64,000 nt of DNA from a virus. Its lineage: Duplodnaviria > Caudoviricetes. The stretch lies in IMG/VR virus record IMGVR_UViG_3300030332_001412, positions 2,204 to 66,203 of that record. One strand, 5' to 3'. Numbering within the stretch: the stretch's first letter is position 1; every line of letters begins with the position of its first letter. Shown here piece by piece: positions 44,612 through 55,304 of this stretch. The notes below the pieces were generated by a model. It saw only the letters and a program-made list of their open reading frames with translations, was not told the origin of the DNA and searched no databases. The position numbers and the translations under genes were made by a program.

Positions 44612-45142
44612 TCATTCGTCAGTGCCGCCAAGGACTTCCTCCGGGTCCAATCCCTCCGCGATTGCGGACAGGCGGCCATATTCCAGCAATTCTTCGTGGC
44701 TCAAGCGCGACAGATCGGGGCCCGGGCCGCCGAATGGCTCGCGGGCACGGTCGCCGATTTCGACCTTTGTCGTCCAGCCGCCGAGGCGGGCAAGGATGAA
44801 TTTCTGCGCATCCAGATCGCCCTTCGCGGTCTCGGCGTCGGCGTTCTGGGCGCGATTGATCATCTGCGATCCGATCCCGGCAAGCATCTGGGCCCGGCCC
44901 AACTCCATATCCTCGGCGAAATGGCGGCGCAGGGTATCGCGGCTGACGCCGATCAGGCGGGCGATGTAATGCTCGCCATGGACCGGAAAGACCTTGGCGT
45001 AGGTGCGGACCTTTTCGCGCTGATCTTCGGTCGGGACGAAAGCGGGCTGGCCGAATCTGCCTTTCGGTGCGCCCCGGGCGTCATCGGCGCGCGTCTTGAT
45101 GTTGGGAGCCGTCGCGGGCTTCTTCTTCGGTTTGTCGGCCAT
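44612..45142 (-). CDS. terS: Terminase small subunit
   Basis: FVPTEDQREKV...IARLIGVSRDTLRRHFAEDM HTH, directly upstream of terL. Confidence 0.8.
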   Translation of the reverse strand: MADKPKKKPATAPNIKTRADDARGAPKGRFGQPAFVPTEDQREKVRTYAKVFPVHGEHYIARLIGVSRDTLRRHFAEDMELGRAQMLAGIGSQMINRAQNADAETAKGDLDAQKFILARLGGWTTKVEIGDRAREPFGGPGPDLSRLSHEELLEYGRLSAIAEGLDPEEVLGGTDE

Positions 45143-45278
45143 GGGGCCAAGATACTCACGGCTGATCGAATCGTCGAGTCCCGCCAGGCAGGCGGTTTTT
45201 CCGTCCCGGATTAAGACTTTATTAGGACTTCTCTGGCAAACGACACGCATGGGCACGCACGCACCAAGAGGAAGCCAG

Positions 45279-45449
45279 ATGATGGACGCCACCACCCTCC
45301 GCGAACAGATCCGCACCGCTATCGAATGCGCGAAGATCTACCGCACTCGCCGCCGCCAGCTTGCCTATTTCCAATTGCAGCACGCTCGCCGCCTGCGCGA
45401 ACAGCTGATCGACATTCTCGCGACCAGCGATAGCTACGAGGTGGCATAA
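45279..45449 (+). CDS. Hypothetical microprotein
   Basis: SD AGAGGA; MMDATTLREQIR... Confidence 0.55.
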   Translation: MMDATTLREQIRTAIECAKIYRTRRRQLAYFQLQHARRLREQLIDILATSDSYEVA

Positions 45450-45646
45450 TGGGCCTGATCGATACCATCGCGCTCGGCGCTTTCATCTTCGTCACGCTGG
45501 CCGTGGCCGGATGGCGGGCCCTTGATCTGCTGGCCGAGCGCGAGCGCGCCGAGGATCGCGAGCGGGTCGAATGGCTCAAGCGCCGCGCCAATGTCAGCGT
45601 CTATCGCGGGCCCCTCTATAGCGACCGGGGCCGCGAGACGGATTAA
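45449..45646 (+). CDS. Small single-TM protein
   Basis: TAATG coupling; IALGAFIFVTLAVAGW. Confidence 0.55.
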   Translation: MGLIDTIALGAFIFVTLAVAGWRALDLLAERERAEDRERVEWLKRRANVSVYRGPLYSDRGRETD

Positions 45647-45650
45647 CCTG

Positions 45651-45679
45651 TTGCTGCCACCATTGCAGCGCGATAACAC
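45651..45679 (+). promoter_or_regulatory. Promoter with 15-bp operator
   Basis: TTGCTG-17bp-TAACAC; CTGCCACCATTGCAG at 45654-45668. Confidence 0.6.
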
Positions 45680-45709
45680 GACGACCACCCCACCACGGAG
45701 ATTCGAGAC

Positions 45710-45997
45710 ATGACCATTTCCAACGCCGCCGCCGCCGACCGCGCCGATATGATCCGCGAAATCGGCAAGGCGACCCGCTTCAGCGCCTTCATGCGCTACA
45801 GCCCTTTCGACAAGCGCATTGCCTATTTCGAGGTCGAGGGCGGCGATCAGCGCGCGGCCTACGCCGCCGCTCGCGCCAAGCTGGACGAATTCGAGGCGGC
45901 CAGCGCCTTTCCGAAGCGCGGCCTGATCTACGCGATCAATGGCATCGGCAGCTTTTCGCTCGACGCCGACCTTGCCAGCGAAGCGGGCCTGATCTGA
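45710..45997 (+). CDS. Hypothetical protein
   Basis: CCACCACGGAG leader. Confidence 0.65.
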   Translation: MTISNAAAADRADMIREIGKATRFSAFMRYSPFDKRIAYFEVEGGDQRAAYAAARAKLDEFEAASAFPKRGLIYAINGIGSFSLDADLASEAGLI

Positions 45998-46233
45998 TGG
46001 CCACCCCCGCCCGCACCTTTGCCACTCGCTCGGGAGCCGTTAGGGCCGCCCGGAACGAATGCCGCAAGCACCTCGGCGACCGGTTCTATGGCTATGAGGG
46101 CCACGATTTCGAGATTCGGCACGATGGCCAACTGATGGGCGCGCTCGGTGGGCCCCGGTTTTATTTCCGGCTTTGCGGCCCGGCCTTGCTGATCGAAGAA
46201 GGCGCAACACCAGCCGAAGCGGGGATTGTCTGA
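45997..46233 (+). CDS. Hypothetical protein
   Basis: TGATG coupling. Confidence 0.6.
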   Translation: MATPARTFATRSGAVRAARNECRKHLGDRFYGYEGHDFEIRHDGQLMGALGGPRFYFRLCGPALLIEEGATPAEAGIV

Positions 46234-46475
46234 TGTCCATATCGTTTGCCGATTTCGCCGCCTCGGGGCGCGATGTTGCTGATCTTGGGGTCGAGATTGA
46301 GGGCATGGACCTCGAAGGCGTGCCGGGCCGCATCTACGCCCATCCGGGCGGGCCATTTATTCAGCGCGAGGGGGATGGATGGTTCCTGATTCTCGGCAAT
46401 GAAGATTTCTCTGGCGACCTTGCTGATCTTGAGGCCCGGCTGTTCGAATGGGCGCAGAGCGAGGGGATCGTTTGA
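46233..46475 (+). CDS. Acidic hypothetical protein
   Basis: TGATG coupling; Asp/Glu-rich. Confidence 0.6.
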   Translation: MSISFADFAASGRDVADLGVEIEGMDLEGVPGRIYAHPGGPFIQREGDGWFLILGNEDFSGDLADLEARLFEWAQSEGIV

Positions 46476-46621
46476 TGGCCGACGACATCATTGCATTTCA
46501 GGCTGGCCGGGAGGCGGCGATTGCCGGAAAGAACCGGGACGCTCGCCGCAGCGCCGATTGGCTTGAGGGCTATGATCAGGTGTCCGAAGATATGAAGCGC
46601 GAGGCCCGGCAACGAGCCTGA
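46475..46621 (+). CDS. Rmf/CrpP-fold-like microprotein (48 aa, not in ORF track)
   Basis: MADDIIAFQAGREAAIAGKNRDARRSADWLEGYDQ...; resembles RMF GYQAGIAG...WLGGW. Confidence 0.5.
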   Translation: MADDIIAFQAGREAAIAGKNRDARRSADWLEGYDQVSEDMKREARQRA

Positions 46622-46640
46622 CGATCAAAACCCGGTCAAA

Positions 46641-47261
46641 TCATCGCCGCCGGAGCCGCAAGGCCTCGGCGGCTTTGCATTGCGCGGGGTCGATGTCGAT
46701 CCCGATGGCGTCGAGCCCCATGGCCTCGGCCATAGCGGGCACCGTCCCCCGGCCACAGAAGGGATCGACCAGCGGGAGGCGTGGCCGCCCGGCAAACTCA
46801 ATCGCCAGCTTGGCGGCGGTCATCCCCATGGCGTTCGGATAGAGCATGTGGCCGCGCTCAATGACATCGGGCGTCGCTGTCCCGGGCCGCGTCTTTTCAT
46901 CGCCCAAGGCGATCAGATGCGAGTAGCCGGGGCGATGGATGTCGGCCTTCCCCACCCCCCGGCGCAGCACGATCTTGTGCCATAGCACCCGCAGGCCCGC
47001 CGCCTCGCCGAGCCCCATGATCATCGCCGCCTTCGAATGCCATTGGCCCTCGGCCTTGCGGTCGGTCGCATAGATGACCGCTGGCGCTCCCGGAGCCAGA
47101 ACGGCGAACGTGCGCTCAAGCGCAGTGCGATAAAAGACCTCCCAATCCTCAATCGAACAGCCGAGTTCGTTCTGATCGGGCGGGCTGGCGACCACCGAGC
47201 AAGGCGGGCAATCGCCAGCGAGCCATTCGAGGGCGTCGGCGCAGACGATGCGCTTAGGCAT
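46641..47261 (-). CDS. beta-class amino-methyltransferase with variant SPPD motif
   Basis: IVCADALEWL, VVASPPD at N-terminus, VDPFCGRGT...IGIDID at C-terminus. Confidence 0.75.
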   Translation of the reverse strand: MPKRIVCADALEWLAGDCPPCSVVASPPDQNELGCSIEDWEVFYRTALERTFAVLAPGAPAVIYATDRKAEGQWHSKAAMIMGLGEAAGLRVLWHKIVLRRGVGKADIHRPGYSHLIALGDEKTRPGTATPDVIERGHMLYPNAMGMTAAKLAIEFAGRPRLPLVDPFCGRGTVPAMAEAMGLDAIGIDIDPAQCKAAEALRLRRR

Positions 47262-49041
47262 CGGCGCTGACGATTTCGAATTCGTCGCCTCCCTGATCCT
47301 CGCCCAGATCGCCGGAAAGCACCCGGTCCAAGCCCGCGTCGGTATCGACCGGGCCCAAGGCGTCGGTTGCCTGGCGCGGATTGCCCTTGATGAAAACGAG
47401 GATGTTCTGATGGGTCTTGCCTAGCTTGCGCCCGGCGCGGAATTGCTTGGCGGTCCTGATCGGCAGGGAGCCGACGCTGGTGACGAGGATCGCCTCATTG
47501 TAAAGCTGTGCGCCGGCCGCCTCGAAAGCCGCGATCGTCTTGCTGACGAAATTGGCGTAGATGCCGCGCTTGTCGCGATAATCGCCCACGACGAAACAGG
47601 CGAAACGATCATCGGCCAGCCGCGCGACCGCCTTGGCGATGATTTCCGCATAGACCTTGTCGAAAGCCGCGATGTCCATGGTGCTGATGTCATCGGGGTC
47701 GTCGCTATAGACCTCCAGATCGCCATACGGCGGGCAGGAAAAGATGAAATCGTAGCCGTCCCCGATCTGGTCGGCCTTGCCGGTCTTGGCCAGCACCGCG
47801 TTGCTATCGCCCGCGTGCCATTCCGGCGCGACGGGATCGCCAGCCTCAATCTCGGCAAGCGCGTCGGCGACGCCCGGCCATTGCTCTTGATTGGCGAGGA
47901 TTTGCTCGGGGCGCAGATCGATTCCGGTATATCGGCGCCCGAGCGCGCCAGCGACGATGCCGCGCACCGAGCCGCCAGCGAAGGGGTCAAGCACGCGCCC
48001 GCCCGCAGGGCTGAACCACCGATAGGCCAACTCGCAAAGCACCGGGTCGAAGATCGACGTGCCGCTGGACAGGTCGCTATCGGGCAGCACCCAATGATCG
48101 CGCTCGAATTCCTCGGGCGTCAGCTTGCGGCCCACCTTGGCTTCGGCGGCGGTCTTTTGCTCGTAATAGCGCGGGTGGCTCGACAGGGCATCCATCGTGA
48201 CGCCGCCGAGGCCCTTCTTGCGGCCCTTGCCCTGCTCGGCATAGCCCGCCGATGTGCCGGGCTTCCCGCCGCGCTCGGGCTTTATCTCGCCCTCCCCCTT
48301 GAGGATGTCCTGCCCAAGCGCGCGAGCCTTGCCCTTTCCGGCCTCGCGGGCGGCCTGCATGGCGGCGCGCTTCTCGGGGTCGGGCTCAAGCATCGTATCG
48401 GACATTTTGAGCAAGTTCTCGCCCCGGCCCACCTCGCTTTTGATGCCGAGCGCCAGCCACGCGCGCTTGCGCTGCATCCACCATCCCTCGCGGGCCGACA
48501 GGACCGTGAAGGGGGCGGCGAGGAATTCGCCAGCCAAGGAGCCGGCACCCGCCTTTGCGCCCGCTGGCGCGACCGGATCGCTGCCCTGCGCGAGCGCATC
48601 GAGGGCCGAGGTATCGAAGCCGATGATCGGCAGATCGAAATCGGCCGTCCGCAATTCTTCCAATTGCTCGTTGAGGATTTCGAGATCCCACCCGGCTTGG
48701 AGCGCCAATTGATTATCGCCGAGGCTATAGGCCTTGCGATCTTCCTCCGACCAGCCCGAGACATCGATAACCGGGACGGTGCCCTTGGTCAGCGGCTTGC
48801 CGCCGCTTTCCTTGCCGGGAGGCAAGTAGATCAGGCCGTCGGCCTCGTAGATCGCCCGGGCGGCCATCAGGCGGCCATGCCCGGCCCTGATCAGATCGTC
48901 GGCCAGGATGGGGTTGGTCCAGCCGAAGCGATTGATGGCGCTTACCAGCTGATCGATCTGGGCGGGGCTATGCGTGCGCGCGTTGCGCGGGTCGGGCTTG
49001 AGGTCGTCGATCTTGCGCAGGGCAATCTTGGGTGCGGGCAT
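47254..49041 (-). CDS. ParB-like N-terminal domain fused to DNA methyltransferase
   Basis: LKPDPRNARTH...RFGWTNPIL...AGHGRL (ParBc); SIFDPVLCE, VLDPFAGGSVRG, IFSCPPYGDLE. Confidence 0.85.
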   Translation of the reverse strand: MPAPKIALRKIDDLKPDPRNARTHSPAQIDQLVSAINRFGWTNPILADDLIRAGHGRLMAARAIYEADGLIYLPPGKESGGKPLTKGTVPVIDVSGWSEEDRKAYSLGDNQLALQAGWDLEILNEQLEELRTADFDLPIIGFDTSALDALAQGSDPVAPAGAKAGAGSLAGEFLAAPFTVLSAREGWWMQRKRAWLALGIKSEVGRGENLLKMSDTMLEPDPEKRAAMQAAREAGKGKARALGQDILKGEGEIKPERGGKPGTSAGYAEQGKGRKKGLGGVTMDALSSHPRYYEQKTAAEAKVGRKLTPEEFERDHWVLPDSDLSSGTSIFDPVLCELAYRWFSPAGGRVLDPFAGGSVRGIVAGALGRRYTGIDLRPEQILANQEQWPGVADALAEIEAGDPVAPEWHAGDSNAVLAKTGKADQIGDGYDFIFSCPPYGDLEVYSDDPDDISTMDIAAFDKVYAEIIAKAVARLADDRFACFVVGDYRDKRGIYANFVSKTIAAFEAAGAQLYNEAILVTSVGSLPIRTAKQFRAGRKLGKTHQNILVFIKGNPRQATDALGPVDTDAGLDRVLSGDLGEDQGGDEFEIVSADA

Positions 49042-49515
49042 TCAATCCTCCTTGGTGGGTGCCGGGGTCCAGCCATGGGCCCGGGCGTAATCTTCGATCT
49101 GTTTGACGCCGAGCGCGACCGCATCGGCAAAGGTGTGGGCGATCTGGACTTTCGAGTAAGCCCGCTGGCCGCCTTCATGCGGGAAAAGCATCTCGACATA
49201 GACGCAAGCCGCGCCGGTCGCGTCGGTATAGCGCCGGGCCGTGACGATCGGTTCGAAATCGGGCGGCAAGGCATCGACGCCAAGCTGGACGACGGGGTGC
49301 TGCTCGCCAGCGATGCCGAGCGTCAGCTTTGCGCCCGCCAGCAGGAACGCGGCCTCGCTGGCCTCGACCTCCCAAGCCGAGCGCATATAGCCCACGCCCC
49401 CGATCTGCTCGCGCCGGACGAATAGCGCGCTGCAATGGCCGTCGCTCCGCTCGTTCCAATCGGGCGGCGCGCCTAGCGGCTTCGGGTCGGCTCCTGCGAT
49501 GCGGACGGCTCTCAT
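49042..49515 (-). CDS. Hypothetical protein
   Basis: LGAPPDWN...GHCSALFVRR...SAWE conserved-looking phage motif. Confidence 0.6.
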   Translation of the reverse strand: MRAVRIAGADPKPLGAPPDWNERSDGHCSALFVRREQIGGVGYMRSAWEVEASEAAFLLAGAKLTLGIAGEQHPVVQLGVDALPPDFEPIVTARRYTDATGAACVYVEMLFPHEGGQRAYSKVQIAHTFADAVALGVKQIEDYARAHGWTPAPTKED

Positions 49516-49522
49516 TGGCCCG

Positions 49523-49855
49523 CTATATCCGCCGCCGCCTGCGCGGTCCACGCCGCTTGCGCTTCGCGCGTGCCTGGCCGCGTAGATGCTTGGGGATGGC
49601 CCAGACCCGGACCTTGCCGGTGCGCGTCTCCATCTGCCTGATCGTCTCGGGCACCCGGCCTCCGGGCCAAGGCGATGTGCGGAAGCCTTCGGCGCGCTCG
49701 CGCTCCAACTTTTCGAGGGCACAGACCACGCATCCATCCCGGGGCTTCCAAGCGGGGGATTGGCCGTGGCCTCTCGGGCATTTCTTTGGCTTGGGCGCCG
49801 GGTAGAGCGCGGCGAGCGAGCGGGGGTGGGGCTTTCGGCTGTGGTGGCGGCGCAT
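49523..49855 (-). CDS. Basic Zn-finger-like protein
   Basis: CPRGH...CVVC; Arg-rich tail. Confidence 0.45.
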   Translation of the reverse strand: MRRHHSRKPHPRSLAALYPAPKPKKCPRGHGQSPAWKPRDGCVVCALEKLERERAEGFRTSPWPGGRVPETIRQMETRTGKVRVWAIPKHLRGQARAKRKRRGPRRRRRI

Positions 49856-49896
49856 GGGCGATGTTGCACCACAGCGCCGGGCTCCGAGTCAATCGA

Positions 49897-50094
49897 TCAG
49901 CGCGCGGCCATCCTGAATCGTCCCCCGCGATGGTTGGCGGGGTTCTTGCGGCCATCCTCGGCGGGAGGCTCGGGGCCCATCGACCATTCGGGGTCGGCGG
50001 GGCGATGCTCGCAGGCGATGTCGGGTTTGACGCCGCAATAATAGCAGGGAAATCCGGGGTCGGGTCGGCGACCGCTGAAGGGGACGCGCCTCAT
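49897..50094 (-). CDS. Small Zn-finger protein
   Basis: CYYCGV...CEH; ATGA coupling. Confidence 0.5.
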   Translation of the reverse strand: MRRVPFSGRRPDPGFPCYYCGVKPDIACEHRPADPEWSMGPEPPAEDGRKNPANHRGGRFRMAAR

Positions 50095-50282
50095 TCGTCG
50101 CGCTCAATGATCTTTGCTTCGGGCTGGCCGGTGACAGCGACGACGCCGCCGAATTTCCGGCGCCGGTATTCCATGGTCTGGCGCACCCGCCGGGCTTCCT
50201 CGCGTCGCTTGGCGAAAAGCCAAAGGCCCATGGCGGGCACGCTGGCGGGGATCGACCAGAGAGCAATCTCCCACCAAGTCAT
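50091..50282 (-). CDS. Small single-TM protein
   Basis: ATGA coupling; WWEIALWSIPASVPAMGLWLF. Confidence 0.5.
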   Translation of the reverse strand: MTWWEIALWSIPASVPAMGLWLFAKRREEARRVRQTMEYRRRKFGGVVAVTGQPEAKIIERDE

Positions 50283-50455
50283 GCCGACGCCTCGCGCACC
50301 GGGCCAGCTTGAGCCATGATGCCGCGGAGATCCTCGACCCCTCGCCGGGCGTTGGCCTTGGTCGCATAGCCCTCGCTGGCGGCGACGATTTCGCCATTGA
50401 GGCCCTTGATGCGGAAGCGCCACTGGCCCGCCTCGTCCCGGTAAATTTCAATCAT
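50279..50455 (-). CDS. YegP/DUF1508-family protein (58 aa, not in ORF track)
   Basis: MIEIYRDEAGQWRFRIKGLNGEIVAASEGYATKANARRGVE. Confidence 0.85.
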   Translation of the reverse strand: MIEIYRDEAGQWRFRIKGLNGEIVAASEGYATKANARRGVEDLRGIMAQAGPVREASA

Positions 50456-50467
50456 GCCCGCTCGCTC

Positions 50468-51472
50468 CTATTTCGCGCCGCATCTGATCTTGGTATCGGT
50501 CCCGCCGACGCCACACTCGCCTTCGGCCTCAAGGTGCATGGGGTCGATGTCGATTAGCAATGGGGAGCGCGCCACATCGCGTTTCAGATCGGCGTAGGAA
50601 TATTCGGTCACAAATTGCGCTCCGCTGGCCTTGCTCGCCAGATCGCTGCCAAGCTGCTCAATGTCAATCCATGGGTCGATGCTGCCCGGGCGCTCACGCT
50701 CTTGGAACATCAGCACATCGCGGCCCTTCAGGAAGCAATGGGTGCAATTGCCCTCATAGGGCCACAGGCCCAGATCAAAGCCGAGGGGCAGCGGAAGGGT
50801 CGGCTTGCGCGGGTCGAGATTGCCGCCGAGCCAAAAGCGCCACACGTCGCGCTTGGTGGTGCCCGCCTTCAGCATCGGCCAGGCTGATTGCCACCGCTCC
50901 CGGCCTTCCTCGTTGCGGGCCTGTTGCTTGGCGATCCGGCGCATTTCATCGGCCCGGAGCCCGACGATATTGCGCCATTCCTCGTAGCCCTGCGCGAGCA
51001 TGAATTGCTTCATCGTATCGATCTTCAGTTCCGCCGTGCAGAACCGGCTCACCGCATTGGGCAAGTATCGCTTGCGATTGATCAGCGCCCGGAAGGGCTC
51101 GCCATCGCGCGAGGCGCTATTGAACCCCACCTCGTCGAACCGCTCGCTGGCGGGCGTCTTGGCTGATTCCCGATCTTTCCATTCAAGCCATCGGATGCGC
51201 ACGCCCCATCGGGTTGCGCATTCATGGACGAAGCGCAGGGTTTCCTCGCGCTCAAGCCCGGTATTGGCGAAAGTGACATGGCAATCGGCGGGCAGAACGC
51301 CGCCATGGGCCCACAGGATTTGAAACAGCATGAAGGCGCTGGTGCGCCCGCCGGAAAAGCTGATCAGCGCCGGGCCTTCGATCCAGAACGGGGAGGCCGG
51401 GTCGGGTGCTGGCCACCGCACCCGGCCATCAGGCCGGAAGGGGACGGGATAGTCGAGACCGGCGAACATCAC
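50468..51472 (-). CDS. PAPS-reductase/DndC-like PP-loop protein
   Basis: ISFSGGRTSAFM, FANTGLE, RFCTAELK, GLRADE, NCTHCFLK. Confidence 0.85.
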   Translation of the reverse strand: MMFAGLDYPVPFRPDGRVRWPAPDPASPFWIEGPALISFSGGRTSAFMLFQILWAHGGVLPADCHVTFANTGLEREETLRFVHECATRWGVRIRWLEWKDRESAKTPASERFDEVGFNSASRDGEPFRALINRKRYLPNAVSRFCTAELKIDTMKQFMLAQGYEEWRNIVGLRADEMRRIAKQQARNEEGRERWQSAWPMLKAGTTKRDVWRFWLGGNLDPRKPTLPLPLGFDLGLWPYEGNCTHCFLKGRDVLMFQERERPGSIDPWIDIEQLGSDLASKASGAQFVTEYSYADLKRDVARSPLLIDIDPMHLEAEGECGVGGTDTKIRCGAK

Positions 51473-51813
51473 GCGGGCTCGGGCGCGGGGACGCTCTCGG
51501 GTAAATCGATCTGCTCGGGGCTCAAGGGCGGCACCTTGCGGAAATGGCGACAGTCGAACGCCGCCCGGGCGTTTTCCTCCGTCGGGTGCTTGCCCGCGTT
51601 GCTGAATAGCAGATAGGCGGGCGCCGGGTCGTCGATCACATGGCCCGGAAAGCAGTCGGGCCCATAGACCATCACAACGTCGTAGATCATCGGCGGGCAG
51701 GGCTTCTGATCATCGGGCAGCGCGGTGGTATCGGGACCGATGGCCTTCGGCTTGCCGAACGGCTTGATGCACATCGCCTGATCGCCGGGGTTCCAATGGG
51801 GTTGCTCGGGCAT
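51469..51813 (-). CDS. Hypothetical protein
   Basis: CCCACCAAGGAG leader; WNPGDQAMCI. Confidence 0.6.
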   Translation of the reverse strand: MPEQPHWNPGDQAMCIKPFGKPKAIGPDTTALPDDQKPCPPMIYDVVMVYGPDCFPGHVIDDPAPAYLLFSNAGKHPTEENARAAFDCRHFRKVPPLSPEQIDLPESVPAPEPA

Positions 51814-51857
51814 TGCGTTCTCCTTGGTGGGACGCCCGATCTAGCGCGCCGGGGCGG

Positions 51858-52496
51858 CTATTGGCAAGGAGCCAGAAGATCGCGTTGCGCAGCGGCGCGG
51901 GTCAAAAGCGGCAGGGTCTTGGCGAATTTGGTGGCGCTGGTGCCGTCGATTGAGTCGACGCCAGCCCCGGCACAGATCGCGATCCGCCGGGCGGTATTGA
52001 CCCGGCCCGTATGGACGTAGAGCCCTCGCGCCTTGCCCCATCGGCCCCACGGTTCGATTGCGGCCAGTTTCCATTCGGTGCTGCCGCCGATGAACAGGCC
52101 GACGCGACGATCGATCAGCAGGGGCTCGACATCGGAAAAGGTCATCCCGTCTTGCACCGCGATCAGCAGGCGAGCGTCGCCCAGATCGGCGCGGGCCAGC
52201 AATCGGGGGAGCCATAACCGGGTGCGGGCCAAGCTGGCGAGGCAATCGGCGACCACATCGGGGACGACGATGAAATCAGCGCCCGGGCCGAATTGATCAA
52301 GCGCGTCGATGAAAGCCGCCTCGTTCCAATCGACGCCTTGGGAGAAGGCGGGCCAAGCGCCATTGTCGAGCGCGTGCCTCATGCCATGGAGCCTCGGGCC
52401 CCGGCCATCCAGCGGGCCGACCATCCAGCGCCATCCGGCATCGCGCAGGGCTTCGATATTGCGTCGCGTCGCGGTGCGCGAGGCGTAGCAGATCAT
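51858..52496 (-). CDS. dpdA: DpdA/TGT-like transglycosylase (TIM-barrel)
   Basis: ALDNGAW, FIVVPDVVAD, IAVQDG, LFIGGSTEWK, VHTGRVNT.RR, GVDSIDGT pattern of phage queuine-transglycosylase-like proteins. Confidence 0.7.
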   Translation of the reverse strand: MICYASRTATRRNIEALRDAGWRWMVGPLDGRGPRLHGMRHALDNGAWPAFSQGVDWNEAAFIDALDQFGPGADFIVVPDVVADCLASLARTRLWLPRLLARADLGDARLLIAVQDGMTFSDVEPLLIDRRVGLFIGGSTEWKLAAIEPWGRWGKARGLYVHTGRVNTARRIAICAGAGVDSIDGTSATKFAKTLPLLTRAAAQRDLLAPCQ

Positions 52497-53026
52497 GGGG
52501 TAAGACTGAAAGGCAGCGGCTCTTGATCGTCAGGAATGCGCGCTTTCCCCCGGGCCATCGGATGCTTCGGCGATCCGCTGGCATTAGTGCCGAGGCAGAT
52601 CAGATTAAGCGTGCCGATCTGTTCGACCATCGGCGCAATATCGGCGTCGCTGGCCAGATCGCCCCATGCGGCAAGGACCGGCGTGCCCTGTTGGCGCGCG
52701 ATGTCGAGCGCCTCCCTAACCGCCGCCTCTTGCCCATCGCCCCGGCGACGGACCTCGGCCATGCCCCAAAGCGCGCGGGGGTCACTGGATCGATGGCTGT
52801 TGAGATTGATGATCAGGATGCCGCCATAGCCCCACCGCTTGGCCCACTTGCAAAGCCGCTGGACCGTCAGATCGTCCTTTTTTTCATCGGCGGTAGATGG
52901 ATTGAACATGACGACGACCAGCATGGGAAGCGACCAAGCCCACCGCCGCCAGAGCCAGTAGCGGTGCTTGCGATCATCGGAAAGCACGGCCCCCATGTAG
53001 CCCTCGGGCTTGAGCGCGCCGGTCAT
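52493..53026 (-). CDS. DUF1643 family protein
   Basis: RYWLWRRW...VMFNPSTAD...DLTVQRL...INL...SSDP.AL...AAWG...HP. Confidence 0.9.
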   Translation of the reverse strand: MTGALKPEGYMGAVLSDDRKHRYWLWRRWAWSLPMLVVVMFNPSTADEKKDDLTVQRLCKWAKRWGYGGILIINLNSHRSSDPRALWGMAEVRRRGDGQEAAVREALDIARQQGTPVLAAWGDLASDADIAPMVEQIGTLNLICLGTNASGSPKHPMARGKARIPDDQEPLPFSLTP

Positions 53027-53202
53027 CGCCGCCTCGGCCTGCTGGCGTGGTTATGATCGACCGGCTTGACGGTCTTGACGCGCCGGGCGCTGGCGAGCGC
53101 GAGCGCGACATATTCGTCCAGTTCCTCTTGCGTCAGCAGGCGGTGGCCGCCCGCCCTTTCGATCTGTTCGGCCCGGCGGGCCTCGCTTGGCGTCTGTGGC
53201 AT
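53023..53202 (-). CDS. Hypothetical microprotein
   Basis: SD GGAGG; ATGA coupling to DUF1643. Confidence 0.5.
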   Translation of the reverse strand: MPQTPSEARRAEQIERAGGHRLLTQEELDEYVALALASARRVKTVKPVDHNHASRPRRR

Positions 53203-53269
53203 TAGAAATCGCCTCCGTATGGGCACCCGCCACACGCGCGGGTGCGATGATCGATCAGCTTTGCAGCTG

Positions 53270-53512
53270 TCATGCCTTGCTGGCCTTCCATGCCTCGAAT
53301 GCGATGGCGTGGGCCGGGCAGAGGTCTTTATCGGGCGCCGGGCTGGTGGTGCAGCGGTCGCAGATCGGGGCGTCGCAAGTGCCTGATTTGCGCGACGGGA
53401 CTTTCCAATCGCACAGCAGGGTGGCGCGCCGGCCGCATTTGCATCGGCGCGTGGGCCCGCAGACGATGGCGTGGCCAAAGCCGCCGGGCGAGGGGATGAA
53501 GGTGCAAGCCAT
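53270..53512 (-). CDS. Cys-rich hypothetical protein
   Basis: CKCG..ATLLCDW...TCDAPICD.C...DLCP.H. Confidence 0.7.
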   Translation of the reverse strand: MACTFIPSPGGFGHAIVCGPTRRCKCGRRATLLCDWKVPSRKSGTCDAPICDRCTTSPAPDKDLCPAHAIAFEAWKASKA

Positions 53513-53814
53513 CAGACGCCTTCGGGCTTTGATTTCGCCAGCCGGGCCTCCATGGCCGCCATTGCGCGTTCGGCGTCGACGAGGCGGCGGTTCAATGCGG
53601 TGCAGCGATTGGCGGTATCGGAGCCCTGCCGGGCGAGGATGGCGCAGCGATCCTCAAGATCTTCGATGCGGGCGCGCAGATCGCGATTCGAGCCCTCGAC
53701 CGGGCGACAGGTGCAGCCGTTATCGCCATAGACCGCGCCGCCCATGCAGCCGGGGATCATTATCCGGTTCCCGGCCTCGTCATACTCGTAATGGCATTGA
53801 TCGACCGCGATCAT
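53512..53814 (-). CDS. Hypothetical protein with coiled coil
   Basis: IPGCMG.AVYG..GCTC; TGATG coupling. Confidence 0.6.
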   Translation of the reverse strand: MIAVDQCHYEYDEAGNRIMIPGCMGGAVYGDNGCTCRPVEGSNRDLRARIEDLEDRCAILARQGSDTANRCTALNRRLVDAERAMAAMEARLAKSKPEGV

Positions 53815-53978
53815 CGATCAGCGACCGCATCGGCGACCCAGATCAGCGTCGCCCCTATGGCCGCCCATATCGCGACCTCGATGTTGCGGCTGGTCAGCCA
53901 TATCACGATGCCGATGGTGGCCCCGAAGGGTATGCCCACCAGCAAGCCCGCCGCGATCTTGACGAGCAAGTGCCTCAC
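53811..53978 (-). CDS. 55-aa two-TM protein (not in ORF track)
   Basis: VRHLLVKIAAGLLVGIPFGATIGIVIWLTS..EVAIWAAIGATLIWVA; overlaps both neighbours. Confidence 0.55.
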   Translation of the reverse strand: MRHLLVKIAAGLLVGIPFGATIGIVIWLTSRNIEVAIWAAIGATLIWVADAVADR

Positions 53979-54367
53979 CGCCCGGGCCCGATCTGGCGAG
54001 CGTCCATGCCGCGACGATCAGCGGGGTCGCTGATAATTTCGACCGCCGGGGTTTTTGCGTGAGGATGGCCTGCCCGGGCCGGGTTCCAATCCCACGGCGG
54101 ATCGCTCACGCCCGCTCGAAACGGGTTGGCTCGGGCGTCGCCATACATGGCCCGGAATATCTGCTCCTCCTGCGCGCGGGCGCGGGCCTCGGCCTCGCGG
54201 CGCATGAATTCTTCGGACAGGCGCGTCGCGTGGGGACTGATGCGCTCCAAGTCCTCAAGCGTCCATTCGCCCCCTTTGACGCGAAAGGTCGCGGCAGCGG
54301 AATGATCTGGGCCGCTCGACAGATCAAAGCCCATCACTTTGCCGGTGGGGAATTTGCGATCAGTCAT
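53975..54367 (-). CDS. Hypothetical protein
   Basis: MTDRKFPTGKV..., ATGA coupling. Confidence 0.55.
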   Translation of the reverse strand: MTDRKFPTGKVMGFDLSSGPDHSAAATFRVKGGEWTLEDLERISPHATRLSEEFMRREAEARARAQEEQIFRAMYGDARANPFRAGVSDPPWDWNPARAGHPHAKTPAVEIISDPADRRGMDARQIGPGR

Positions 54368-54603
54368 AGCCGGGGGCCCATCCAATAGGTCTCGTCATTG
54401 CGCCGCGCTCGGCTGTTCTCTTGCCGGGTCGAGCGGATCTCATGCCCGGCGCGCCTGATGTGGCAGATCATCACCTTAACGCTCGCGGGACTGACCATTG
54501 CCTGGCGGGCAATCTCGTTCCGCGTCAGGCCATCGGGCCCGGCGTCATTGATGACATTGACGATGCGGGTCTGCCCGGGCGTCAGGCCGGTCGCGGCGCT
54601 CAC
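54364..54603 (-). CDS. Winged-HTH protein
   Basis: LTPGQTRIV...LTRNEIAR...SVKVMICHIRRAGHEIRS. Confidence 0.65.
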   Translation of the reverse strand: MSAATGLTPGQTRIVNVINDAGPDGLTRNEIARQAMVSPASVKVMICHIRRAGHEIRSTRQENSRARRNDETYWMGPRL

Positions 54604-54842
54604 GCGATGATCCAGATCAGCAAGGCCAGCGCGGCGATGATCGACCAAGCGAGCGCGCGGGCTTGATAGAATTCGACCGGCCACCAGAGGCCCCGGCGGG
54701 CAAAGCCACCCCGGGCGTGCGCGCCATTGCGCGTCCACTTGGTGATTGGCTGGCCGGTGGTCCGGTAGAACGACCAATCGTCGCGCCTGATGACCTGAAA
54801 GTGCCAGCACCAGAAGCGCCAGTTAATCCAGAGATTGCTCAT
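54600..54842 (-). CDS. Hypothetical membrane protein
   Basis: NLWINWRFWCWHFQ; C-terminal TM. Confidence 0.6.
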   Translation of the reverse strand: MSNLWINWRFWCWHFQVIRRDDWSFYRTTGQPITKWTRNGAHARGGFARRGLWWPVEFYQARALAWSIIAALALLIWIIA

Positions 54843-54973
54843 TGCCCTACCCTCCTGCAGGCGATCTTGCGCCAGCCGATCCCGAAGATACCGACCGGCC
54901 CGATGTCGAGCGCCCAGATCGCGCCAGCGCGCAAGAAGCTGATGGGCCCGAGTTTCCAGATATATTCATCCAT
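54839..54973 (-). CDS. Hypothetical microprotein
   Basis: SD AAGGAG before ATG 54973. Confidence 0.45.
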   Translation of the reverse strand: MDEYIWKLGPISFLRAGAIWALDIGPVGIFGIGWRKIACRRVGQ

Positions 54974-55304
54974 GGCGTTTCTCCTTGACCATGTGGTCGG
55001 CCAGTTCGGCATCGGCCTCAAGCCCCTTGCGCCGGAATAGCCACGCCGGACCCTCAATTGCCAAGAGCGTCCCGAATGATAGCACGGTGCCCCGGGGGCG
55101 ATCAGCGCCATCGCGGTGCCGAACCTCGAATTCCTCGACTATCTCAATGCGCGAGCGCGGGAGCCAAATGTCCAGCCGGGCGGCCTCATGCGATAGGTCG
55201 CTGGTGCTGACTTGAATCCCCTGCCGGGTGCTGGCGTGGAGCCAGAGCAGGCGGCGCACGGTGGCGGTTGGCCCGCAGCTCACCGGCTTTCCCTCCCGCT
55301 CCAT
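54966..55304 (-). CDS. Hypothetical protein
   Basis: DIWLPRSRIEI...LAIEGPAWLFRRKGL. Confidence 0.6.
   Translation of the reverse strand: MEREGKPVSCGPTATVRRLLWLHASTRQGIQVSTSDLSHEAARLDIWLPRSRIEIVEEFEVRHRDGADRPRGTVLSFGTLLAIEGPAWLFRRKGLEADAELADHMVKEKRHG

Follow-up and report, generated by a model that had tools for sequence, protein, structure and literature searches.

The window analyzed here is a stretch of 64,000 nucleotides comprising bases 2204–66203 of the 66,203-bp viral record IMGVR_UViG_3300030332_001412, which is rated 100% complete by CheckV. A tight run of open reading frames (ORFs) on its minus strand encodes a DUF1643 protein, a protein of 212 amino acids (aa) resembling the base-exchange enzyme DpdA, a 114-aa product, a 334-aa PP-loop protein and a small DUF1508 protein, with two methyltransferase genes located farther along (Table 1). 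A preliminary description of this sequence had pointed to the 212- and 334-aa products on account of short motifs, all of which were recovered: LDNGAW (D44), PDVV (D80) and DSIDG (D181–G185) in the former, SGGRTS (residues 39–44), CTAELK (C144) and NCTHC (C242 and C245) in the latter, with the single 114-aa ORF in between. We favor, with moderate confidence, the reading that the 212-aa gene encodes a compact "singleton DpdA" of an undescribed subfamily, which probably uses 7-cyano-7-deazaguanine (preQ0) supplied by the host, and that its neighbor, a member of the lambda NinC family, is not an obligate partner.

Table 1. Genes at the locus, with positions in the window and the matches on which each assignment is based
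Feature	Position	Strand	Basis
DUF1643 gene	52493..53026	−	Pfam DUF1643, 1.5e-27
Compact DpdA/TGT-fold transglycosylase-like gene, 212 aa	51858..52496	−	fold; phrog_15826; hhalign against DpdA1
114-aa ORF, near-orphan	51469..51813	−	no family match; present in independent gene calls
NinC-type PAPS-reductase-like PP-loop protein, 334 aa	50468..51472	−	Pfam PAPS_reduct, 4.8e-6; phrog_424; hhalign against lambda NinC
Small gene for a DUF1508 (YegP-like) protein, located downstream of the NinC-like gene	50279..50455	−	Pfam DUF1508, 7.3e-14
595-aa DNA methyltransferase	47254..49041	−	Pfam N6_N4_Mtase, 2.4e-9; PADLOC type II methyltransferase models, 4.3e-19
206-aa DNA methyltransferase	46641..47261	−	Pfam N6_N4_Mtase, 4.8e-7

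Fold and candidate active site of the compact protein

Searched as a single sequence or as a profile, the 212-aa protein gave no match in Pfam, NCBIfam, PADLOC or the PDB sequences. It matches phrog_15826 at 9e-70, a family that PHROGs label as "unknown function". An AlphaFold 2 (AF2) model built on 43 homologues (predicted local distance difference test score 93.1) consists of eight strand/helix repeats, i.e. a (β/α)8 TIM barrel. The preliminary description had proposed searching for a fold match to DpdA and to tRNA-guanine transglycosylases (TGTs), and such a match was found by structure as well as by profile comparison (see below). The ten best Foldseek matches in the PDB were all bacterial TGTs or human QTRT1, and VIA-align returned Z values of 14.9 for TGT, 14.5 for archaeosine TGT (ArcTGT), 13.5 for the bacterial enzyme bDpdA (PDB 7UI4) and 13.2 for Cap10 (9ntn) of the cyclic oligonucleotide-based antiphage signaling system (CBASS). 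In a viral structure library one close homologue was followed by DpdA-type phage proteins. At the sequence level, tblastn reached actinophage genes annotated as DpdA-like with 33–40% identity; the SEA-PHAGES annotators name these members "DpdA-like tRNA-guanine transglycosylase".

Across 43 family members with 28–53% identity to the window protein, the residues D44, P79, D80, Q115, G137, G138, K143, H162, V166, S182 and D184 are invariant, and the likeness of the named motifs is thus beyond chance. W48 is also invariant in the family alignment A1. The diverse family alignment (28–53% identity to the window protein) served as query in hhalign against a DpdA1 reference alignment composed of the sequences from phages 9g, CAjan and Iggy, for which DNA modification has been measured, plus four others. 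A probability of 78.8 and an E value of 1.6e-5 were obtained, with 19% identity in the aligned stretch; weaker runs resulted from a narrow family alignment (probability 58.8) and from comparison of the family with a single DpdA, gp87 of Arthrobacter phage Sonali (probability 5). The alignment pairs D44 with D72 of DpdA1 (DNGAW vs. DSGAF), D80 with D114, Q115 with H141, G137–G138 with G162–G163, and H162 with H196. These paired positions correspond to active-site residues reported for bDpdA, namely D95 with F99, D130, H181 and G206–G207, a list that also includes the nucleophile D256 (PMC10164549). The spacing of the bDpdA residues is similar to that of D44/W48, D80, Q115, G137–G138 and the candidate D184 in the compact enzyme.

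The conserved positions describe a candidate catalytic set in which D44 would act as acid/base together with W48, D80 and Q115 would recognize the base, G137–G138 would form the glycine loop and D184 would be the nucleophile, with H162 as a further member. Q115 resembles the corresponding residue in the bacterial tRNA enzyme and not the histidine of DpdA. D184 lies on a predicted strand (residues 182–185, strand 8 of the AF2 model), and it is this position, along with its invariance, that makes it the probable nucleophile. No cysteine is invariant in the compact family, H162 is the sole invariant histidine, and the chain continues for 28 residues beyond D184. Given the missing Cys/His cluster and this early end, the compact enzyme lacks two features, the zinc site present in TGT and bDpdA and the last ~100 residues of DpdA1.

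Comparison with characterized enzymes puts these features in perspective. The DpdA1 proteins of Enterobacteria phage 9g, CAjan and Pseudomonas phage Iggy, which insert preQ0-type bases into DNA, share with the compact enzyme the TIM-barrel core and an aligned set of D-x-G-A-aromatic motif, second aspartate, strand-5 His/Gln, GG loop and strand-7 histidine. Conversely, the compact enzyme is ~100 residues shorter at the C-terminus and carries Q115 where DpdA1 has histidine, and the FolE/QueD/QueC cluster that harbors the DpdA1 gene is absent from the window phage. Relative to bDpdA of Salmonella Montevideo and the TGTs, the fold is the same (Z 13.5–14.9), albeit with no structural zinc site, Ins8 or lid elements and no Pfam TGT match, and no DpdB-like ATPase partner was identified.

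Several results speak against the assignment as a DNA-modifying DpdA. The Pfam TGT model (PF01702) finds no match, neither in the protein at E ≤ 0.01 nor in a six-frame search of the genome at E ≤ 1. Pyruvate kinase reaches a VIA-align Z of 15.6 and many TIM barrels fall between 12 and 15, so that the fold search alone cannot separate TGT from other TIM barrels. The local hhalign alignment ends before the nucleophile, which is why D184 is graded as probable only, and a forced global alignment places D215 of DpdA1 1–4 residues off at low confidence. Moreover, among phages that carry DpdA as a singleton, Orion had no modification and phage 7-11 contained only traces of 2'-deoxy-7-amido-7-deazaguanosine (dADG) (PMC6884629); activity in the window phage is therefore unproven. 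The first two of these results, together with the empty NCBIfam and PDB sequence searches, would also be expected for a generic TIM-barrel enzyme whose function is unrelated to TGT or DpdA and whose motifs resemble theirs by chance. We regard this as very improbable, as five invariant positions fall on DpdA1 invariants in the profile–profile comparison, tblastn reaches annotated DpdA-like genes, and the gene adjoins QueC or QueD in 22 of 80 loci and is fused to QueC in one protein (see below).

Association of the compact family with 7-deazaguanine genes

The compact family is large. A word-indexed search returned 505 matches and an exhaustive search 3182 clusters at 50% identity (E ≤ 1e-3). 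Homologues were found in 311 viral contigs and in 167 bacterial genomes, in the latter mostly as prophages of Sphingomonadales, Burkholderiales and Pseudomonas, and tblastn matched 22 records of cultured phages, which come solely from Erythrobacter (two phages), Roseobacter (one phage) and a number of actinophages. Gene context was recorded for 80 viral loci with a homologue by means of tblastn and subsequent six-frame Pfam confirmation. Greedy clustering of neighbors by longest ORF was dropped for these loci as unreliable, because antisense ORFs displaced real genes in the high-GC DNA.

The compact gene directly adjoins QueC in 15 of the 80 viral loci, QueD in seven and a gene of the YhhQ/VUT family in one. 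Two fused forms were observed: in P0313 (433 aa) the compact domain (residues 6–218) precedes a QueC domain (239–422), and in P0246 (912 aa) a PD-(D/E)XK nuclease domain comes after it. Apart from QueC and PD-(D/E)XK, no Pfam family was detected in the N- and C-terminal extensions of longer members (447–607 aa forms among them), and no other window gene matched them. Arthrobacter phage Sonali carries a compact gene, gp81 (L006:4875-5492), at a distance of 2.4 kb to a complete ParB-DpdA-QueC-QueD-QueE cluster, inside which the full-length DpdA gp87 is located (L006:7862-8752). The presence of two DpdA-type genes in one phage hints that the compact and full-length forms are not redundant. A quick maximum-likelihood tree groups the window protein with the homologues of loci L009 and L011, and the sister group of this branch consists of QueC- and QueD-linked members. 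Such genomic context is the strongest functional evidence for the compact family. Combined with the fold and the hhalign match to DpdA1, the adjacency and fusion to QueC or QueD bear out the earlier identification of a DpdA-like base-exchange enzyme.

In Roseobacter phage CRP-701 (PV211009.1, L007:4899-6024) the compact homologue CRP701_6 is located directly upstream of a VUT/YhhQ gene, a member of the preQ0 transporter family. The annotation of CRP701_6 as "ssDNA-binding protein" looks wrong, and the pairing with the VUT gene suggests import of a precursor.

The association with 7-deazaguanine genes holds for the family and not for the genome of the window phage itself. The absence of folE, queD, queE and queC, as well as queF, from the window, noted in the preliminary description, extends to the whole 66,203-bp record including the segment outside the window, where no match to Pfam TGT, QueC, PTPS/QueD, GTP cyclohydrolase I (FolE), Radical_SAM (QueE type), QueF or Vut_1/YhhQ was found. 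QueC is encoded by each of the 40 bacterial genomes in which a prophage carries the compact gene, and by 59 of 61 sampled genomes from the order of Sphingopyxis sp. PET50, the Sphingomonadales, which includes Erythrobacter. As the hosts of the compact family encode QueC, it is plausible that the phage takes its base from the host, and this part of the earlier proposal stands. QueC is common in Proteobacteria, however, and its presence in the hosts is consistent with this reading rather than discriminating.

DpdA genes in phages devoid of synthesis genes have been described before. Hutinet et al. (2019) listed 76 such phages and proposed reliance on preQ0 of the host (PMC6884629); within that survey, the DpdA phages that lack que genes make up the largest group, and they are also the group that is least understood. 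A follow-up in 2023 defined DpdA1–4 and bDpdA (PMC10516641). Among the papers found in our searches, none describes the ~200-aa proteins as a DpdA subfamily. The window gene agrees with the singleton phage DpdAs (the third group of PMC6884629, including those of Salmonella phage 7-11 as well as of Mycobacterium phage Orion) in being a DpdA-type gene with no preQ0 or archaeosine (G+) synthesis genes, in the presumed dependence on host or imported precursors, and in its uncertain modification status; it differs in that its product belongs to the ~200-aa subfamily phrog_15826. What is added here is a very large, unnamed family of ~200-aa proteins placed in the DpdA branch, which retains the catalytic residues and is repeatedly linked with QueC, with QueD or with a transporter of the preQ0 type.

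On this basis the following mechanism can be proposed. The compact enzyme would represent a bare TIM barrel of the DpdA branch of the TGT superfamily, in which the active-site residues were kept while the zinc subdomain and the ~100-residue C-terminal extension are gone. D184 would displace guanine from phage DNA under formation of a covalent intermediate, with D44 as the putative acid/base. A 7-deazaguanine base would then be inserted, most likely preQ0 made by the host because the phage makes none, and DNA modified in this way may be protected from restriction. The compact family would offer a minimal scaffold in which recognition of guanine in DNA by a bare TIM barrel can be studied.

The protein might alternatively be a true member of the TGT superfamily that does not modify DNA with preQ0, and instead acts on tRNA, conjugates a deazaguanine to protein in the manner of CBASS Cap10, exchanges another base, or excises a base. 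In line with such an activity, the Z value for Cap10 (13.2) is close to that for bDpdA (13.5), the insertions and the zinc subdomain of bDpdA are missing, Q115 resembles the residue of the bacterial tRNA enzyme, and in the singleton DpdA phages examined to date modification was either absent or present in traces only. We nevertheless consider it unlikely, since the closest annotated sequence relatives are phage DpdA-type genes, the gene is found among DNA methyltransferases, and a fusion with a PD-(D/E)XK nuclease domain exists in one family member. For the Cap10-type variant in particular, no CD-NTase or CBASS gene turned up in the flanking ORFs scanned, a search that did not extend to the whole genome.

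The NinC-like PP-loop protein and its relation to the compact enzyme

In the 334-aa protein, S39, G40, G41, R42 and S44 of the PP-loop are invariant and T43 is nearly so; five cysteines are invariant as well (C144, C242, C245, C319 and C330). The match to Pfam PAPS_reduct (PF01507) is weak (27.1 bits vs. a cut-off of 22.5), the match to phrog_424 is strong (9.4e-48). Alignment of the family profile with lambda NinC by hhalign gave a probability of 98.9 and an E value of 1.9e-17 over 193 columns at 28% identity, and the 334-aa protein is hence a homologue of NinC. Common to both are the PP-loop SFSGGRTSAY and the motifs FCT..LK and GNCxxC, whereas the 334-aa protein has an additional N-terminal extension of ~30 residues and a C-terminal extension with the two further invariant cysteines. 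A partial PADLOC match to SspD (1.8e-11, residues 37–213) suggests a relation to the SspD/DndC PP-loop ATPases. The QueC model is not matched: the genome contains no PF06508 match at E ≤ 1, and Pfam assigns only PAPS_reduct to the protein. The NinC-like family is about ten times larger than that of the compact enzyme, with at least 5949 homologues vs. 505 in the indexed search, and 393 records of cultured phages match the NinC-like protein, many of them annotated as NinC.

The preliminary description had assumed that the PP-loop enzyme converts the host-derived base into a new deazaguanine derivative. Co-occurrence of the two gene types was addressed by a PF01507 search in 50 contigs carrying the compact enzyme. 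A match was present in 11 of these contigs, one being a QueC cross-hit via the PP-loop (i.e., 10–11 of 50), compared to two of 34 high-GC viral contigs drawn at random and comparable in size; a one-sided Fisher test gave p = 0.04–0.06 for contigs that are not phylogenetically independent. Among genomes at least 90% complete there was no enrichment (5/28 vs. 2/18, p = 0.43). Of the contigs with the compact enzyme, ~78–80% have no PAPS-reductase gene. In the reverse direction, the compact enzyme was found within 10 kb in four of the 80 closest NinC-type loci, leaving 95% without it, which agrees with the caveat already raised in the preliminary description that PAPS-reductase-like genes are common in phages lacking DpdA. 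Prophages gave a similar picture with two of 80 NinC-type loci. Two Erythrobacter phages appear in both the 22- and the 393-record lists of cultured phages, which were not fully cross-checked. The genes that separate the compact gene from the NinC-like gene are different even in R6L, a close relative, and the PAPS reductases near compact enzymes belong to different subfamilies.

The Pfam models PAPS_reduct and QueC were observed to cross-match PP-loop N-termini at an E value of 1e-4 (contigs of L064 and L074), and weak matches in the co-occurrence counts therefore need checking.

Some of the data question the independence of the two genes. In five of the 50 contigs, no more than 2 kb separate the compact gene from a PAPS-reductase-like gene, and these five cases, together with L164 and two Sphingobium prophage loci, are spread over about six separate lineages of the tree, which leaves room for a functional link. 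Two of the near cases are ordered enzyme-QueC-methylase-PAPS reductase or enzyme-QueD-PAPS reductase. NinC-type or PAPS-reductase-like enzymes could act with compact DpdA on 7-deazaguanine and might produce a thio- or amidino-derivative from host preQ0, 7-carboxy-7-deazaguanine (CDG) or the inserted base; although we judge this to be decidedly unlikely, such joint action would account for the repeated proximity of the two gene types, at 2 kb or less, in about six lineages.

In its full form, this proposal unites the compact enzyme and the NinC-type PP-loop/Fe–S enzyme in one pathway, in which a host deazaguanine, free or in DNA, would be adenylated and receive a nitrogen or sulfur group to yield an undescribed derivative. 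It draws on the arrangement of the two genes, which lie 385 bp apart on the same strand within a series of ORFs that overlap or follow one another at short intervals, as well as on the near neighbors and gene orders just described, the higher count relative to the control contigs, and the YhhQ/VUT gene near two NinC loci. Against this, the enrichment is marginal, rests on phylogenetically non-independent contigs and is gone among near-complete genomes. Most compact-enzyme contigs have no PAPS reductase, the compact enzyme is missing from nearly all of the closest NinC loci, and lambda, in which NinC works, has no DpdA. Neither the intervening genes in R6L nor the subfamily of the neighboring PAPS reductases is constant. 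Conversion of the base by the PP-loop enzyme is consequently not supported, and a joint new pathway is improbable in our assessment. Nor would the class be new as such, because DpdA phages without que genes are already catalogued (PMC6884629). The priority of the idea of a new pathway formed by DpdA and PAPS reductase is lowered accordingly. Instead, the compact and NinC-like genes are probably both accessory and lie together in the early DNA-modification arm, in which the PP-loop/cysteine gene of the lambda NinC family would reside along with the two methyltransferases.

A VUT/YhhQ gene was noted near the NinC-type gene at two viral loci, L136:1256-2714, where it is directly upstream, and L137:6352-10825, where it adjoins a partial match to the compact enzyme.

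Neighboring genes and related genomes

The 595-aa methyltransferase is encoded on the same strand as the compact gene, in the early or DNA-modification arm. The stop of the DUF1643 gene overlaps the start of the compact gene by 4 nt, which suggests translational coupling. DUF1643 is found near the compact enzyme in two of the 80 viral loci, so this pairing is not conserved in the family. The stop of the 114-aa ORF overlaps the start of the NinC-like gene, for which an alternative ATG start exists at 51469. Gene calls from four metagenome assemblies of the same phage agree on ORFs of 177, 212, 114, 333 and 58 aa. For the 114-aa ORF, the family libraries scanned yielded no match, the 80 related loci no homologue, and a collection of 5.8 billion proteins only two distant homologues. 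With co-occurrence in 2/80 and 0/80 loci, respectively, DUF1643 and the 114-aa ORF were dismissed as candidate partners for the compact enzyme.

Among cultured phages, the nearest relatives are vB_EliS_R6L and ZS04 of Erythrobacter; their orthologue shares ~79% identity with the 212-aa protein (tblastn), and both phages represent cultured test cases. No support was found for the label "DarB-like antirestriction protein" given to the ZS04 orthologue (L002:9001-9642, PV416405.1). A near-identical phage genome of 66.3–66.5 kb has been assembled repeatedly from marine metagenomes, as seen in 59 index blocks with contigs of 50–200 kb and in loci L378–L381 (positions 45000–55000 of the window). The phage genome is also contained in a 129,955-bp contig of the metagenome-assembled genome GCA_002729615.1, which could represent a concatemer or a prophage, or else an artefact of binning.

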